Below, piece by piece: positions 12,224 to 49,178 of a stretch of 64,000 bases of DNA. The notes under the pieces were generated by a model. It was not told where the DNA came from. It was given only the letters and a program-made list of their open reading frames with translations, and ran no database searches. The DNA comes from Escherichia coli (lineage in GTDB: Bacteria > Pseudomonadota > Gammaproteobacteria > Enterobacterales > Enterobacteriaceae). The stretch lies in the NCBI RefSeq assembly GCF_003019035.1, contig NZ_CP027447.1; one strand, given 5' to 3'. A program made the translations under genes and the position numbers. The number at the start of each line of letters is the position of its first letter. The first letter of the stretch is position 1.

Positions 12224-12544
12224 TCAGCGGGATAATTTTTGGATTGTTTCGGTTGAAACACGATCTCCCTCCGAATTGCAGGAACCATCAAGAGAGAGAG
12301 CCGGAGAAATTTGCCCAACCTCCGGCATCGTTTCATCTGTTGATAACCAATAAGCATATTTCTTAAATTTAGGGTGTTTAGTAACCTTAAGTAAGGCACC
12401 CTCTGTTACTTGCTTCCCCCTCACCTCATAGTTAGTTACCGTCCCATAAGGCAGCCCAACACAATCCGCAAACTCCTGGCGGGTCATACCTTCTGCTTCA
12501 CGAATCAGGCGAAATTTTTCACCCATGCTTGACAAAGATGCCAT
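12224..12544 (-). CDS. Immunity repressor (HTH_XRE; positional C/CI equivalent)
   Basis: Contains the HTH motif GMTRQEFADCVGLPYGTVTNYE. It is divergent from cox and co-oriented with int. The start is uncertain; MASLSS was chosen because it lies 10 nt after GGAGGA. Confidence 0.75.
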   Translation of the reverse strand: MASLSSMGEKFRLIREAEGMTRQEFADCVGLPYGTVTNYEVRGKQVTEGALLKVTKHPKFKKYAYWLSTDETMPEVGQISPALSLDGSCNSEGDRVSTETIQKLSR

Positions 12545-12602
12545 ATCGGGCATATCCTCCATCGCAACATGCCACATCGGGCATAAACATAAAAACACTC
12601 AA

Positions 12603-14945: not shown

Positions 14946-15241
14946 GCGCCATCAACCACCAGGAATTACGCGAACTGGCAACTGACCTTCAACGAATGGC
15001 AACGCATCAAAAATTACTGGCGTTTCGCGCAACGCTCTCGCCGTCTGCTGTGCTGGCACTGCTGGATGAGCTGGAGCACGCCAGAACCACGGCTCCTGCC
15101 ATTCGCCTGACACTCCATCATGAAATCGCCGATTTCTGCGCGACGTTGGAGGCACCAGGCGAACCGGAAACGCCGGAAGCAATACAGCAAGAGCTGCTGC
15201 AACGCATTGACAAGGTTTTTGATTTTTTTCTGAACCAGTAA
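14942..15241 (+). CDS. Hypothetical early protein
   Basis: 99-aa acidic helical ORF coupled to the upstream gene. Confidence 0.55.
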   Translation: MSAINHQELRELATDLQRMATHQKLLAFRATLSPSAVLALLDELEHARTTAPAIRLTLHHEIADFCATLEAPGEPETPEAIQQELLQRIDKVFDFFLNQ

Positions 15242-15334
15242 GAAACCAGAACATGCACACACAAAAAAACCGCTTGCCATGCCGCAATCAGTCAGGTTAC
15301 ATTTCCGCTGCACCTCACAAAACGGGTGCCGGGT

Positions 15335-15358
15335 TTCGCAGCCTGCTGACTACACAAG
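15335..15358 (+). promoter_or_regulatory. Upstream target-like copy (TTCGCAG ... CTACACAAG) complementary to the c4-like RNA
   Basis: TTCGCAG (15335-15341) and CTACACAAG (15350-15358) are exact complements of 15479-15485 and 15464-15472. Confidence 0.5.
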
Positions 15359-15363
15359 CGCAC

Positions 15364-15384
15364 AACCGCGCCAGCGGTTTTTTT
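15364..15384 (+). terminator. Rho-independent terminator
   Basis: Stem AACCGC/GCGGTT, loop GCCA, followed by T7. Confidence 0.65.
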
Positions 15385-15425
15385 GTGCGTACTGTATTGC
15401 CACGTTTTTTTCGCGTCAGAATTAT

Positions 15426-15506
15426 GGCGGGGCGTACGGGGCCGACTTCGGTCGGGCCGGGTTCTTGTGTAGCCGGTACTGCGAACCTCGTACGTCTCGC
15501 CACCCA
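15426..15506 (+). ncRNA. Candidate c4/CI-type antisense regulatory RNA (about 80 nt, three-way junction)
   Basis: A 14-16-bp closing stem (15426-15441 with 15486-15501) contains three G-U pairs that are valid only for a plus-strand RNA. It encloses a UUCG-tetraloop hairpin (15440-15458) and a second hairpin (GGTTC/GAACC, 15460-15487). The loop of the second hairpin carries CUUGUGUAG and CUGCGAA, which are complementary to sites upstream and downstream. The 3' tail is ACCCA (RCCA-like). No ORF. Confidence 0.5.
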
Positions 15507-15510
15507 CAGT

Positions 15511-15553
15511 TTCGCAGCTCTGGATGGTGAGTTTTCACAACTTACTACACAAG
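15511..15553 (+). promoter_or_regulatory. Downstream antisense target overlapping the RBS of the 76-aa ORF
   Basis: TTCGCAG (15511-15517) and CTACACAAG (15545-15553). The latter overlaps the AAGGGG Shine-Dalgarno, 7 nt before the ATG at 15564. Confidence 0.5.
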
Positions 15554-15563
15554 GGGCCACACC

Positions 15564-15794
15564 ATGGCAAACCGCAAACCACACCGCGCTATCGCGGAGC
15601 GTCGTCACATCCAGACTGAAATCAACCGCAGACTTTCCCGCGCATCACGCGTCGCGCAAATCATGCACATCAATATGCTGCATGAGCGCAGCCACGCACT
15701 ATCAAACATTTATTCCGCCTCTGTTTTCAGCTATCTGGCGGATGATCTGCACGAGCTTCAACAGCTCATCCAGCAGCAAAACAAACTCCATTAA
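15564..15794 (+). CDS. Hypothetical 76-aa protein (positional analogue of icd downstream of a c4-type RNA)
   Basis: ORF with an SD. Basic N-terminus and helical C-terminus. Family not recognised. Confidence 0.55.
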   Translation: MANRKPHRAIAERRHIQTEINRRLSRASRVAQIMHINMLHERSHALSNIYSASVFSYLADDLHELQQLIQQQNKLH

Positions 15795-15866
15795 TTCCTG
15801 TTCCGGGCCTTTCCTGCACCTTGCGGCGGGAGGCCTTCGCACATCTGTAGTAAAGAGAATTGCAGC

Positions 15867-16256
15867 ATGATTGACGCTCATGACTTCACAAGATGGGTGC
15901 GCACACAGGACACCCGTCTGGCTCCCGTTCTTCAGGGATTATTTGATCTCTACATCCGTGGTCGTGACAACAGAGCACGCACCACAAAACCAGAGAATGC
16001 AGACACCCTTTATTTCACAGTAGACGACTGCTACCGCGTGGACTTCACACCACACGGGCTGGCGTTGCACTGCCTGACACCACACGGCGAATCACTACTG
16101 GCTTATTACGACTCCCCGGCCTCCGTATTTGCGGCAATGCTGGCGCATCGCACTGCTGGCGGGTGTGCCTCGCTGAGTGAATACACCGCTGAATTTAACC
16201 GCCTTTCCACCCTCTTCTCGCAGGAGTGGCAGCGCGTGACGGGATACCAGCCATGA
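15867..16256 (+). CDS. Hypothetical 129-aa protein
   Basis: ORF whose stop overlaps the probable gene A start (ATGA). Confidence 0.55.
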   Translation: MIDAHDFTRWVRTQDTRLAPVLQGLFDLYIRGRDNRARTTKPENADTLYFTVDDCYRVDFTPHGLALHCLTPHGESLLAYYDSPASVFAAMLAHRTAGGCASLSEYTAEFNRLSTLFSQEWQRVTGYQP

Positions 16257-19093
16257 GTGAGTTTGCATGGAGCTGGAATGAACCACGGCCAGCCATTGAT
16301 CCAGCCAGATTTACGGAGCACAGGCAGGAAACTGAAACCGACCTGCAACGCGCCATCCGTTACTACCTTGAGGCGGACAAAAGGGCACAGAAAGAACAGG
16401 AAGCAAAGGAAGAAGCCTTTTTCGCACAATCCGCCATGGGTAAAAAACTCATGGCATCCCATGAGGAAGCCGGACAGCGTGAAAAGCTGGCACAGAGCAT
16501 CATCAGTAAGCGCCGGGCAACAGAACAAGACCCGGTAGCCCGTGCCTTTGCCACACTGAAGGCGCTTCCCGTTTATCTGCGAGAACCTCTGAGCCGCCAC
16601 CTCTCTTTCCTGCGCAAGAAGCAGGAAGCCGATCGTCAGAAAGGCAAAAAGAGCTGGCAGGCGGAACGCTATGCACGCGGAACCCTGCGCAAAATATTCG
16701 AACGTCTGGACCGCACCGACAGCCGCTGGCTGACACCGGGTTATCGCTCTCTTGCCGGACGCGAACGCCTGGACGATTTGCTTTACCTGCCGCAGCTCAA
16801 CAAACACCAGATACAGACGCTGGCCACCATGACGGCGGCGATGTTCAGCAGCACCTTCGAAAAACTCTGCGATGGCTTTGGCGCGACTGATGGCGAACTG
16901 ACCATGGATGTAACGCTGAAGGCGTATCAGATGCTGGCCCGCATGGCGTTACACCTGCACATCATGCCTCCACATTATGACGCACTGACAACAGATAAAG
17001 ACCGGAGGAACGAACCGGACACGGAGCTGCTGCCGGGCGCAATCCTTCGCCTGACCTGTGCGGAATGGTGGAAACGCAAACTGTGGCTGTTACGTTGCGA
17101 GTGGAGAGAAGAACAACTCCGCGCCGCCTGTCTGGTTTCCAGAAAAACATCACCCTATCTGAGCCAGGACGCGTTAAGCGAGTTTCGCGCACAGCGCGAG
17201 AAAACACGCGATTTCCTGAAAAGTTTCATGCTGGAAAATGAAGACGGGTTCACGATTGATCTCGAGACGGTGTATTACGCGGGAGTAAGTAACCCGGTTC
17301 ACCGTAAGGCAGAAATGATGGCCACCATGAAGGGACTGGAACTTCTGGCCGAAGCCCGTGGCGACAGAGCGGTGTTTCTGACTGTCACCTGCCCGTCAAA
17401 ATACCACGCAACAACGGAGAACGGTCATCCGAACCCCAAATGGAACGGGGCCACCATGCGCGACTCCAGCGATTACCTGGTTAACACGTTTTTTGCGGCG
17501 GTCCGCAAAAAACTGAACCGCGACGGCCTGCGCTGGTATGGCATCCGCACGGTGGAGCCTCACCATGACGGCACCGTGCACTGGCACATGATGGTCTTTG
17601 CTCATCCAGAAGAAATCGACAGCATCGTGGCCATCACCCGCGATATTGCCATTCAGGAAGACCGCCACGAGCTGGGCAATGATATTACTCCGCGCTTTAA
17701 GGTGGAGTATGTCGACGGCTCAAAAGGCACACCAACCAGCTACATCGCCACCTACATCGGAAAGAACCTGGACAGCCGCGCCGTGGATGGCATCGACCCG
17801 AAAACGGGCAAGCCACGCGTTGACCACGAAACCGGAAAATCAATGGCCGAGAGCGTGGAACGCGCCATCGGCTGGGCGCGCCTTCACCGGGTCCGCCAGT
17901 TCCAGTTCTTTGGTATCCCCTCCCGTCAGGTGTGGCGTGAACTGCGCCGCCTTGCCAGCCAGATGGCACGCAACCCGGAAGGCCCGCAACGGCTGAAGGA
18001 TGACGCAATGGACGCGGTACTCGCTGCCGCTGATGCCGGATGTTTTGCCACCTACATTGAGAAACAGGGTGGCGTACTTGTTCCACGCAAAGACTACCTG
18101 ATTCGCACCGCCTACGACCTCGCAGATGAGCTGAACGATTACGGCGAGCAGAGTGTACAGATTTACGGGATCTGGTCGCCGCTCATCGGGGAGTCTTCCC
18201 GCGTGTGCACGCACCCGGATAACTGGAAGCTGGTAAGACGTAAACCGGAAGCGGAAGACAGCGCCCGCGAAAATGGTTTTGACCTTCAGGGCGGCCCTGC
18301 CGCCCCTTGGACTCGTGGCAATAACTGTCCCCGTGTACAGGAAACGGACAACAACGGGACAGAACAGCCGGAAGAACGGCCAGCACCGTGGCCGCAGCTC
18401 CCTGACGGCGTTGAAGTGAACGAATGGATGCGCTCACTGAAACGGCACGAACGCCGGGCGCTGATGCGTTCGCTTCGTGACAAACAGGCAAAAAACAGCA
18501 GTGATGAAATGCAGAGCTGGACACAGAGCCGCAAACAGCAGCGGCCTTTGCCTGATAACCACGAATTACTCGCTAAAGAATGGCGGGAGTCTGCTGAATC
18601 TCTCGGCCTGCATATCGGTGAACAGCAGATGCAGCACCTGTTACGGGGCGGCAGTCTGTACGTTGACGGCAGCATCATTGCACCGCAGGGATTTGAAATT
18701 GTACGCAAACCGGATACCCGACCGGACAGCCGGATCACGCAGCTCTGGCAGCGCCTGAGCCGTAACCACGGCGTAAGCAGCACGGAGATCCGCCATAACC
18801 CGGTCGCCAGCTATCTGGAACAGCTGGCGGCATCAGACCCCGAAGCCGCCGCACGCCTGGCATCCACACTTCAGCAAGACCAGAACACCATGAAAACACC
18901 CGTTACCGTGCTTTCTGACATGCTGCGCGCCATCCGCGACGCAGAGCACGCACAGAGAATCAGTGAAACCACTGAACGCGCCCGCCGCAAAGCAGACCTG
19001 CTGCGGGGTGGCCTGACCATTGGAAACAAAAAACAGACAGAAACGGGATTCACAAATCCCGTAAATGAGCAAAAAACGCGCCGCGATATATGA
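16253..19093 (+). CDS. A: P2 gpA-type replication initiation endonuclease
   Basis: LTVTCPSKYHA and VEPHHDGTVHWHMMVF are rolling-circle HUH/Tyr motifs that parallel remembered P2 A. The start is placed at the ATG (MSEFAWSW) coupled to the upstream stop. Confidence 0.9.
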   Translation: MSEFAWSWNEPRPAIDPARFTEHRQETETDLQRAIRYYLEADKRAQKEQEAKEEAFFAQSAMGKKLMASHEEAGQREKLAQSIISKRRATEQDPVARAFATLKALPVYLREPLSRHLSFLRKKQEADRQKGKKSWQAERYARGTLRKIFERLDRTDSRWLTPGYRSLAGRERLDDLLYLPQLNKHQIQTLATMTAAMFSSTFEKLCDGFGATDGELTMDVTLKAYQMLARMALHLHIMPPHYDALTTDKDRRNEPDTELLPGAILRLTCAEWWKRKLWLLRCEWREEQLRAACLVSRKTSPYLSQDALSEFRAQREKTRDFLKSFMLENEDGFTIDLETVYYAGVSNPVHRKAEMMATMKGLELLAEARGDRAVFLTVTCPSKYHATTENGHPNPKWNGATMRDSSDYLVNTFFAAVRKKLNRDGLRWYGIRTVEPHHDGTVHWHMMVFAHPEEIDSIVAITRDIAIQEDRHELGNDITPRFKVEYVDGSKGTPTSYIATYIGKNLDSRAVDGIDPKTGKPRVDHETGKSMAESVERAIGWARLHRVRQFQFFGIPSRQVWRELRRLASQMARNPEGPQRLKDDAMDAVLAAADAGCFATYIEKQGGVLVPRKDYLIRTAYDLADELNDYGEQSVQIYGIWSPLIGESSRVCTHPDNWKLVRRKPEAEDSARENGFDLQGGPAAPWTRGNNCPRVQETDNNGTEQPEERPAPWPQLPDGVEVNEWMRSLKRHERRALMRSLRDKQAKNSSDEMQSWTQSRKQQRPLPDNHELLAKEWRESAESLGLHIGEQQMQHLLRGGSLYVDGSIIAPQGFEIVRKPDTRPDSRITQLWQRLSRNHGVSSTEIRHNPVASYLEQLAASDPEAAARLASTLQQDQNTMKTPVTVLSDMLRAIRDAEHAQRISETTERARRKADLLRGGLTIGNKKQTETGFTNPVNEQKTRRDI
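19043..19062. repeat. Palindrome ACGGGATTcacaAATCCCGT (copy 1; candidate parC/ParR site)
   Basis: 8-bp arms within a roughly 30-bp unit that is repeated 73 bp downstream. Lies in the last codons of gene A. Confidence 0.45.
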
Positions 19094-19169: not shown

Positions 19170-20129
19170 ATGAAAATTTGTATCGATGACGGCTCCACCA
19201 ACATCAAGCTGGCATGGACTGAGAACGGCGAACGCCGCAACGCCATCAGCCCGAACAGCTTCAAGTCGGAATGGTCTGCGCCGTTCGGTGGCACGCAGCC
19301 CGCGAACTACATGCTTGATGGCGTGCGCTATGGTTTTGATCCGGTCAGCGATCGCTTTGTCCAGACGACCGACACGCAATACCAGTACAGCGATGTGAAT
19401 GTCATTGCCATTCATCACGCGCTGGTCAAATCAGGCATCACACCACAGGAAGTGGATGTGGTTGTCACCCTGCCACTGAGCGAATATTTCGACACAAACG
19501 CACAGCCGGACATGGCCAACATCAACCGCAAAAAAGCAAACGTCATGCGCCCGGTGGCGTACCAGAACGGAAAAGCATTCACTATCCGTAACGTACGGGT
19601 TATGCCTGAATCCATTCCGGCTGGTTTTAAAGCACTGGCTGACATGAGTCCGTTTGAATCCCTGCTGATTGTGGATTTAGGCGGAACCACGCTGGATGTG
19701 GCAAAGGTTCAGGGACAACTGGCAGGTATCAGCCAGGTGTTTTGCGATCCACACGTAGGCGTTTCCCTGATGGCCGATGCCGTACTGTCGGTGATGGCCA
19801 CTAACGGTATGCGCACCAGTCACCACATCGCCAATACCATTATCGAACATCGCCATGATGAAGCCTGGCTGCGCCAGCACATCCACAATGACGCGCATTA
19901 CGCCAGCCTGATGGCGGTTATTCGTGAAAAGGAAGAAACACTGAAACAACGCGTGATCCGCGCGCTGGCGGTTTTTTCGGGTTACGGGCGGGTGATGGTT
20001 GTCGGTGGCGGGGCGGAGATTGTGGCACCCGCTATCCGCGAAGCCTGCGGAGTTAATGCGACTTTCATCGCGGACGGGGTGCCACAATTTGCTCTGGTTA
20101 ATGGGCTGTACGCAATGAACAAGGAGTAA
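19170..20129 (+). CDS. parM: ParM/StbA actin-like plasmid segregation ATPase
   Basis: 319 aa. ICIDDGSTNIKLAW, YSDVNVIAIHHAL, MPESIPAG, IVDLGGTTLDV and VVGGGAE align colinearly with remembered plasmid R1 ParM. Confidence 0.85.
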   Translation: MKICIDDGSTNIKLAWTENGERRNAISPNSFKSEWSAPFGGTQPANYMLDGVRYGFDPVSDRFVQTTDTQYQYSDVNVIAIHHALVKSGITPQEVDVVVTLPLSEYFDTNAQPDMANINRKKANVMRPVAYQNGKAFTIRNVRVMPESIPAGFKALADMSPFESLLIVDLGGTTLDVAKVQGQLAGISQVFCDPHVGVSLMADAVLSVMATNGMRTSHHIANTIIEHRHDEAWLRQHIHNDAHYASLMAVIREKEETLKQRVIRALAVFSGYGRVMVVGGGAEIVAPAIREACGVNATFIADGVPQFALVNGLYAMNKE

Positions 20130-28074: not shown

Positions 28075-28398
28075 GTGAGCACCATTCAAACAGGGATCAC
28101 AGAGCAGGTTATTGCGTGGCTCTTTGACCACCTGCCAACGGTGTATGCAGTAGGCGCGGCGGTCAGCATTTCCGCGCTGATGAGTCTTTATGACGGACGA
28201 ACACTGGTTCAGACCGTAACGGGATCGCTGGCGTGCGGCGTTCTTGCCATGGCCGTGGCCGGGTCGTTGCGCTTCTTCGGTTTTCCTGAAGATGCCGTGA
28301 CGTTTATTGGCGCATCAATCGGTTTTATGGGCGCAGAGAAAGCACGCGACAAGGTTATTGCAGCCTTTAATCGCAGGGTGAAGGAGAAGGACGAATGA
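28075..28398 (+). CDS. Putative holin
   Basis: 107 aa from a GTG after GGGGGGAG. It has 2-3 TM segments and a charged C-terminus, and precedes the endolysin. Confidence 0.6.
   Translation: MSTIQTGITEQVIAWLFDHLPTVYAVGAAVSISALMSLYDGRTLVQTVTGSLACGVLAMAVAGSLRFFGFPEDAVTFIGASIGFMGAEKARDKVIAAFNRRVKEKDE

Positions 28399-47004: not shown

Positions 47005-49178
<2,174 letters not shown>

Follow-up and report, generated by a model that had tools for sequence, protein, structure and literature searches.

A probable IsrK-C4 RNA immunity module ahead of an ε-like gene in P88-like P2-type prophages of Escherichia coli

The isrK and C4 RNAs are structural homologues of seqA and of the CI RNA of satellite phage P4, and the name "IsrK-C4 immunity system" is in use for P4, P1, P7, N15 and some lambdoid prophages (PMC3632133, PMC4825925; for the C4 and c4-a1b1 motifs, PMC2864571). 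P4 CI RNA controls termination of the operon that holds ε and α (PMC4825925, PMC3632133), and in N15 a small processed RNA controls the antirepressor AntC (Ravin et al. 1999, cited in PMC3632133); such RNAs precede antirepressor genes in N15, Gifsy-1 and P1 (PMC4825925, PMC3632133). Experiments on Gifsy-1 revealed a short IsrK, a read-through transcript and, further downstream, a processed RNA, and it is the only case for which Hfq binding of isrK and trans-activation of the antirepressor are known (PMC4825925). Here we describe a further locus of this kind, found in a stretch of 64,000 nucleotides of the Escherichia coli contig NZ_CP027447.1 (the window), in the early region of a P88-like P2-type prophage. 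By analogy with the described systems, the gap between two small open reading frames (ORFs) of this prophage is probably an IsrK-C4 RNA immunity ("anti-immunity") module, which would act as an RNA lock on an antirepressor and as a second immunity layer.

The gap measures 322 bp (15242-15563) and separates a 99-aa ORF (stop at 15241) from a 76-aa ORF (ATG at 15564). An Rfam scan of the whole window at curated thresholds gave exactly two matches, a C4 RNA and an isrK-like leader, and both lie in this gap (Table 1). A first-pass annotation, made from the letters of the window, had proposed a c4/CI-type antisense RNA with the architecture of P1 and P4 and had named the covariance models of C4 and isrK as a check; both match at full length, and the same pair recovers the loci of P4 and N15, while C4 with c4-a1b1 recovers that of P1. 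The C4 match covers the whole model (1-87 of 87; E 7.4e-15, gathering threshold 45) and, at 83.2 bits, scores higher than the copies in N15 (78.8 bits), P4 (74.9 bits) and P1 (68.8 bits).

The predicted fold agrees with this assignment. On the plus strand, the interval 15420-15507 has a minimum free energy (MFE) of -47.7 kcal/mol (z -4.46, equalled by none of 200 shuffles), and its MFE structure is the Rfam consensus, a long closing stem around two hairpins; the minus strand folds more weakly (-33.6 kcal/mol, z -1.9), which fits the three G-U pairs of the closing stem (15430/15497, 15432/15495 and 15439/15488). This stem had been drawn as 15426-15441 with 15486-15501 and, on account of three G-T pairs, as functional in the plus strand only; it is real, and one pair longer than drawn (17 bp, 15425-15441 with 15486-15502). 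The UUCG hairpin reported inside it is likewise present, at 15442-15455 (CCGAC-UUCG-GUCGG), but the second internal hairpin had been misplaced: the conserved hairpin 2 spans 15456-15477, with the stem GCCGG/CCGGU (15456-15460 with 15473-15477) in both the Rfam consensus and the MFE fold. The segments GGTTC and GAACC, which had been taken for that hairpin, do occur in the sequence; however, the helix they would form is paired in 83.8% of cells over the 16 variants of the alignment described below, four of its five pairs are broken in some variants with no compensatory change, and it competes with the conserved helices, so that it was discarded. The 3′ tail of the RNA reads CCCAC, and the ACCCA noted directly after the closing stem, a motif like the RCC(A) 3′ ends of mature C4 RNAs, is found at 15502-15506, its ACC (15502-15504) being kept in relatives. 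C4-type RNAs of P1 and P4 are processed by RNase P.

The 5′ flank of C4 carries the sequence AAUUAU, conserved in almost all C4 copies examined, and this conservation may reflect a context for RNase P cleavage. The same bases form the -10 element of a second promoter-like site abutting C4 (15397-15425; TTGCCA, 17 nt, AATTAT), which would start transcription inside the C4 stem; the site was taken as a chance match.

Two segments of the C4 RNA are left single-stranded by this fold, as the first-pass annotation had stated: b′, which as DNA reads CTTGTGTAG (15464-15472), within the 12-nt loop of hairpin 2, and a′, in the junction that stays unpaired between hairpin 2 and the closing stem. Each has an exact complement on either side of C4, a1 and b1 upstream and a2 and b2 downstream, and the earlier count of two complements for each segment is correct. 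The 9-mer CTACACAAG and its complement occur three times in the window against 0.24 expected, a number reached in none of 100 shuffles; the 7-mer TTCGCAG is not enriched window-wide (10 matches, 11.9 expected), with three of the ten falling within this 183-nt stretch. The overlap of the downstream CTACACAAG with a Shine-Dalgarno sequence was also read correctly, b2 ending at 15553 and AAGGGG occupying 15551-15556 ahead of the ATG of the 76-aa ORF. This placement of b2 over the ribosome-binding site (RBS) of the first downstream ORF recurs in all relatives and in the P1 annotation.

Table 1. Features of the RNA module and of the associated prophage genes (positions are those of the window).
Feature	Positions	Strand	Basis or location
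C4 antisense RNA	15420-15507	+	Rfam RF01695, 83.2 bits; fold; stem covariation
b′ CUUGUGUAG	15464-15472	+	12-nt loop of C4 hairpin 2
a′ CUGCGAA	15479-15485	+	unpaired junction, hairpin 2 to closing stem
a1 TTCGCAG	15335-15341	+	complement of a′; loop and 3′ arm of second isrK hairpin
b1 CTACACAAG	15350-15358	+	complement of b′; single-stranded leader linker
a2 TTCGCAG	15511-15517	+	downstream a′ target
b2 CTACACAAG	15545-15553	+	downstream b′ target; 3′ end overlaps Shine-Dalgarno
isrK-like leader, P4 seqA type	15310-15384	+	Rfam RF01394
Promoter-like site	15274-15303	+	-35 TTGCCA (15274-15279), 18-nt spacer, -10 TACATT (15298-15303)
Intrinsic terminator	15364-15384	+	AACCGC-GCCA-GCGGTT then 7 T; terminator scan
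76-aa ORF, homologue of P4 antirepressor ε (E)	15564-15794	+	Pfam PF25738; BLASTP; PHROG
129-aa ORF	15867-16256	+	matches only phrog_3237 (unknown function)
Replication endonuclease gpA (gene A)	16253-19093	+	Pfam Phage_GPA, E 3.8e-131
P2 C-type immunity repressor	12224-12598	-	37% identity to P2 C, E 1e-22; phrog_147

Comparison of related loci strongly supports these contacts. Relatives of the 76-aa protein were collected from 80 IMG/VR loci and three genome loci and, together with phage records, gave 88 P88-like loci; covariation was scored on an alignment of 16 distinct variants, with slid and shuffled (n=500) controls. Among eight phages of three backbones (P88-like, lambdoid and P4), a′ and b′ differ and the sites at fixed offsets change in step. 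The 88 P88-like loci fall into 13 a′/b′ types, 12 of which have all four targets exact, while the remaining type retains its b sites with single mismatches and G-U pairs; the two segments also reassort, CUGCGAA being found with six different b′ loops.

In the alignment, C4 together with a′-a2 and b′-b2 is paired in 99.1% of cells, with 13 pairs changed on both sides, a result matched by none of the 500 shuffles and set against 38-46% paired cells in the slid controls; for a1-a′ together with b1-b′ the value is 99.6%, with both-side changes in 10 of 16 pairs and slid controls at 24-54%. Taken individually, the intermolecular helices are 94-100% paired and show four to six both-side changes each: four of seven pairs in a1-a′ and four of seven in a2-a′ (both 100% paired), six of nine in b1-b′ and five of nine in b2-b′. 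The C4 stems themselves are 100% paired in the 16 variants, with compensatory changes at four pairs. This comparison gives direct evidence that selection acts on all four RNA-RNA contacts.

Two further sequence features were noted in these RNAs. One variant, in IMGVR_UViG_2582580934_000004 (120-406), has a 17-nt insertion that duplicates hairpin 2, and its RNA would present two tandem b′ loops, CUUUGCUCU and CUUGUGUAG; it is either a dual-specificity recombinant or an assembly chimera. The interval between a2 and b2 holds a conserved segment, CTCTGGATGGTGAGTTTTC (15518-15536), with a similar GGTGGTGAGTT in the lambdoid copies. Within it, TGGTGAG (15524-15530) is complementary to the 3′ strand of the C4 stem (CTCGCCA, 15496-15502), is followed by TTTTC and would leave a2 in the loop, a pairing by which the transcript, before processing, could form an alternative helix or a weak terminator.

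The complements upstream of C4 are where the first-pass annotation had placed them; however, they do not simply flank C4, but belong to a distinct isrK-like leader, which has a promoter-like site and a terminator of its own. The isrK model is matched over its whole length (1-77 of 77; 64.1 bits, threshold 50), and the 75-nt leader folds into two 5′ hairpins, a single-stranded linker and a terminator hairpin, conserved in relatives, that corresponds to the 3′ hairpin of the model; about 40 nt separate the end of the leader from C4. The promoter-like site stops 6 nt before isrK position 1 (G15310), and the alignment places -35 and -10 elements at the equivalent position before isrK in P88, phiSM, three lambdoid phages and P4. 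The Rfam model c4-a1b1 (RF03163), which matches P1 and P4-like loci, gave no match in the window at its gathering score of 46.7 bits, and the assignment of the upstream sites to that motif was rejected, as they are of isrK type. No LexA box was found near 15250-15570, the 17 matches in the whole window being at chance level (19 expected), and an SOS input through such a box near the module was rejected as well. Phage P88 was obtained through mitomycin C induction (PMC5285337).

What the RNA would control is indicated by the first downstream gene. The 76-aa ORF matches the Pfam family PF25738 (Derepression) with 32.5 bits (threshold 27), a family in which P4 ε itself scores 170 bits; it is 29% identical to P4 ε over 66 aa (BLASTP, E 4e-9), the PHROG families of the two proteins match reciprocally, and many close relatives bear the NCBI name "derepression protein". 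P4 E (ε) binds the C repressor of P2 and acts as an antirepressor (PMC2995052). From this homology and the known binding of ε to P2 C, the 76-aa ORF is likely an anti-C antirepressor, and the RNA would thus sit on the RBS of such a gene, whose start codon lies 57 nt after C4. The second immunity layer suggested by the first-pass annotation is therefore best read, in a corrected form, as a probable RNA lock on an antirepressor, since the 76-aa ORF is an ε homologue. No icd or ant homologue was found among the ORFs of the window, the first ORF after b2 being the ε-like gene.

The 129-aa ORF that follows has no Pfam or NCBIfam match, and a relation to P4 ORF151 was dropped, no similarity being found; its stop overlaps the start of gene A (ATGA, 16253-16256; gpA start from the RefSeq annotation of an identical prophage). 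It is possibly a downstream passenger of the RNA control, and gene A may be gated too, as the first-pass annotation had proposed. The terminator scan predicted no intrinsic terminator between C4 and gene A. Right after gpA, this integrated P2-type prophage carries a ParM-type plasmid segregation gene (19170-20129); in identical prophages a partition or stability gene is likewise annotated after gpA.

The host element is a P88-like (Xuanwuvirus) P2-type prophage of the Peduoviridae, which agrees with the P2-type prophage and the cox-to-A position given at first pass. Nucleotide identity of the region is 100% with Escherichia phage PhiR44_2, 99% with Xuanwuvirus P884B11 and 91.8% with phage P88, and of the 5426 complete E. 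coli genomes searched, 1338 (about a quarter) carry it. The gene order is integrase (by pdxB), repressor, cox, small early ORFs, RNA module, 76-aa ORF, 129-aa ORF, gpA and ParM-type partition genes; the module thus lies between cox and gene A, both of which were found by Pfam (Phage_Cox and Phage_GPA). RefSeq annotates a shorter, 106-aa form of the C-type repressor. Among 86 collected loci, 76 have gpA and three, which have α, are genuine P4 satellites. Neither P2 nor 186 gave a C4 or isrK match in its early region. A species-level genome scan for ε relatives yielded six loci only, of which three are P4 satellites in doubtful or contaminated assemblies, including metagenome-assembled genomes (MAGs). 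A contig of Vagococcus sp. WN89Y carries a P88-like module with an 88%-identical ε-like gene, and contigs of Clostridiales, Ferruginibacter and an unclassified MAG carry α and ε genes about 99% identical to those of P4; these enterobacterial sequences are probably the result of contamination or mis-binning.

In the P88-like loci whose sequence reaches the repressor gene, the repressors form 17 clusters, a few fragments included. The C4 type of the window occurs with seven repressor clusters, and repressor cluster 8 with five C4 types; judged from these loci, the RNA types assort independently of the repressor types. Between loci whose C repressors share only about 30-50% identity, the ε-like protein remains conserved at 89-100% identity. 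The independent assortment, together with the conserved ε-like protein, supports a modular second immunity layer.

Compared with the described systems, the cassette combines traits of several. In P4, isrK (8692-8615, 60.8 bits) and C4 (8507-8420) stand in the same order and strand upstream of ε, the loop and junction segments are complementary to upstream and downstream sites, a promoter lies at the equivalent position, an ε-family gene follows, and P4-like elements also have combinatorial specificity types (12 in the sample). Unlike P4, however, the RNAs of the window are only 64-66% identical to those of P4, and the ε-like gene directly follows C4 with b2 on its RBS, whereas P4 has another ORF between CI and ε, ε lying about 245 nt further downstream. 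P4 lacks a protein immunity repressor and replicates by the α primase; here a P2 C-type repressor stands next to int and cox, so that RNA is not the sole immunity factor as it is in P4-type immunity, replication is by gpA, and the 129-aa ORF is unrelated to ORF151. No a′ or b′ is shared between the 88 P88-like loci (13 types) and 84 P4-like loci (12 types); RNA cross-talk with P4-like satellites, which would make the helper immune to satellites or satellites to the helper, is therefore not supported in this sample.

The P1 locus a1/b1-c4-a2/b2-icd-ant, annotated with a1 at 48255, b1 at 48269, c4 at 48343-48419, a2 at 48423, b2 at 48452 and icd at 48470, has nearly the same spacings. It is also the model for two-layer immunity, in which a protein repressor is combined with an RNA that holds back an antirepressor; the window prophage has a repressor, a C4 RNA and a protein homologous to a known antirepressor, the antirepressor role being predicted from homology. 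P1 and P7 differ in immI, and in the P88-like loci too the RNA specificity varies independently of the protein repressor. P1 differs in that its upstream sites match c4-a1b1 and not isrK, with no leader terminator annotated, and in its downstream genes, icd and ant1/2, which are not of ε type; the window has no icd-like leader ORF coupled to ant, and no equivalent was identified in it of the C1 operator in the P1 c4 promoter region.

N15 has isrK (62.4 bits) and C4 upstream of an antirepressor operon, and its a′, UUGAGAA, is identical to one P88-like a′ type, but its backbone is that of a linear plasmid prophage and its antirepressor belongs to the Ant family. The closest RNAs are those of the lambdoid prophages (Gifsy-1, SfV, ST64B, mEp460 and Stx-type), where the early operon likewise holds the module, placed between regulatory and replication genes and ahead of an antirepressor: the C4 of SfV, ST64B, mEp460 and Stx-type phages is 77-83% identical to the window copy (N15 74%, P1 69%, P4 66%), and isrK 77-79%. 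These differ in their lambdoid backbone and in antirepressors of Rha/Ant type, and in Gifsy-1 translation enters via a small orf45 coupled to anrP, whereas here the target RBS is that of the ε-like gene itself. Because the RNA is lambdoid-like while the downstream gene belongs to the P4 ε family, the cassette is, on sequence grounds, a mosaic.

In the mechanism proposed for the lysogen, the leader promoter would be active and most transcripts would end at the leader terminator, giving a short IsrK-like RNA, while read-through transcripts would be processed to mature C4 in the way of P1 and P4, with a 5′ end made by RNase P and 3′ trimming. C4 would pair with a2/b2 and block ribosome entry on the ε-like gene, so that the antirepressor would not be produced; the loss of translation might also depress, by polarity, the 129-aa ORF and gene A carried on these transcripts. 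The short leader RNA, carrying a1/b1, would compete for C4, and the ratio of termination to read-through would thus set the state of the switch; the ε-like protein, once made, would inactivate the C-type repressor. Since RNA type and repressor type assort independently, the module may constitute a second, RNA-coded layer of specificity. Several points weigh against this lock. The mechanistic steps beyond the sequence anatomy rest on analogy, and the published systems closest in RNA disagree, C4/CI being the repressor in P1 and P4 and short IsrK an activator in Gifsy-1. Early transcripts must cross the leader terminator to reach gene A, for which the model gives no explanation, and the predicted promoter is a 9/12 consensus match of a kind not above shuffled expectation in the scanned region. 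The near invariance of the ε-like protein would be unexpected if it bound its own repressor specifically, and its target could differ; it either sees a conserved repressor surface or has another target.

The main alternatives concern how the RNAs act. C4 may work as in P4, on nascent transcripts via a1/b1 and a2/b2, causing premature termination and thereby gating gene A and the 129-aa ORF; this reading overlaps with the favoured one and is held to be possible at rather low probability. The same two Rfam families stand in the same order as in P4, the 129-aa ORF and gene A are translationally coupled through their overlap, and the pairing of TGGTGAG with the C4 stem could serve such termination, but the lack of a predicted terminator between C4 and gene A speaks against it, as do the protein repressor, absent from P4, and the position of b2 on the Shine-Dalgarno sequence as in P1, where the annotated mechanism is translational repression. 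A switch of the Gifsy-1 type is a live alternative because cis pairing is predicted in the read-through RNA: the MFE fold of 15310-15580 (-106.6 kcal/mol, z -3.58) pairs a1/b1 with the a′/b′ regions and resembles "structure A" of the isrK locus. The read-through RNA would then be silent by itself, a short IsrK-like RNA would open it in trans, and C4 would be no independent repressor; the activation of downstream antirepressor translation by short IsrK in Gifsy-1 (PMC4825925) and the greater nearness of the window RNAs to lambdoid copies than to P4 are in line with this. However, a2/b2 covary with a′/b′ as strongly as a1/b1 do, which is not required if a1/b1 act purely in cis; the C4 domain is scored as a whole C4 RNA that folds on its own; a processed RNA, STnc1160, was detected downstream of isrK in the Gifsy-1 study itself (PMC4825925); and there is no counterpart of the orf45-anrP coupling, b2 lying directly on the ε-like RBS. 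We consider it unlikely, and place it behind the P4-like mode.

Two further explanations would deny the module a function as RNA. The interval might encode a protein of the "Ash" family, with the RNA-like features incidental, given that a plus-strand frame from 15253 to 15870 is open for 205 aa, matches Pfam PF10554 (Phage_ASH) with 26.5 bits and has no stop codon over the 270-nt module in 13 of 16 variants; yet that score is at the threshold (26), the frame crosses the entire ε-like gene out of frame, and the other three variants have frame-breaking indels or stops with all RNA pairs kept. Variation is moreover focused on six short, mutually Watson-Crick complementary sites, a signature of RNA and not of codons, and the equivalent ORFs of P4 and N15 overlie the C4 RNA gene; on the threshold score, the broken frames and the RNA-type variation, the coding reading was rejected as very improbable. 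The least probable of all is that recombination with a lambdoid or P4-like element left the module behind as an inactive remnant: the early regions of prophages do have a mosaic structure, and the joining of a lambdoid-like RNA part to a gene of the P4 ε family would suit it, but such a remnant would not have kept four targets matched to two segments over 13 types, nor would its C4 fold still be full-length and high-scoring in those complete E. coli genomes where the region occurs.

The RNA lock on the ε-like antirepressor gene, which remains the favoured reading, lies in a region that is poorly served by annotation. No RNA is annotated there in the three GenBank/RefSeq records inspected, which show the region as empty, as "hypothetical protein" or as "ash family protein" (in one, "similar to ash family protein"), and a literature search found no description of C4 or isrK in P2-like, P88 or Xuanwuvirus phages. 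The PF10554 match covers aa 16-109 of the window ORF, whose frame runs over the whole isrK-C4-a2/b2 module; PF10554 also matches the old "cI" ORF of P4 (8168-8584, minus strand), which overlies CI RNA, and the N15 "gene 32, transcriptional repressor" (28082-28372, minus strand) overlies C4 likewise, so that the family looks as if it had been built on translated RNA genes. The marker used for "ε" in a survey of P4-like satellites (PMC8628076) is PF10554, whereas ε itself matches PF25738. In phages 1720a-02, Stx2a_WGPS2, mEp460 and ST64B (about 1640-2200 of each locus), a coding sequence named "antirepressor", "Rha" or "transcriptional regulator" is drawn upstream over isrK and C4; translation probably begins in fact at the ATG some 10 nt beyond b2 (e.g., MATIPTLTQPE). 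An Rfam match to STnc100 in N15 (19863-20048, 72.5 bits), between gene 24 (cor) and gene 25, is unrelated.

The RNA family and its logic are known, and the finding extends a known system without revealing a new kind; what it adds is a member that is very common but unannotated, stands in a new phage backbone and is followed by an informative gene. The survey of P4-like satellites named δ as the sole P4-specific gene with clear homologues in P2-like phages (PMC8628076), and two parts of the P4 cassette, the immunity RNAs and ε, now have counterparts in a helper-type phage lineage. A bolder and doubtful proposal is that P88-like phages are full-size P2-type phages carrying the cassette of satellite P4, RNA lock and ε-type anti-C antirepressor together, in which at least 13 types of lock and at least 12 types of C repressor have diverged and been recombined with each other around a nearly invariant ε-like protein. 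If this were true, an incoming phage of another RNA type could escape the resident lock, make the ε-like protein and derepress resident P2-type prophages, a cross-induction of phage against phage, and the cassette would mark an evolutionary link by which P4 gained the means to hijack P2, or the reverse. With the module, P88-like P2-type prophages would gain a second, RNA-coded immunity determinant, which suggests testable explanations for induction and heteroimmunity among co-resident P2-type prophages.

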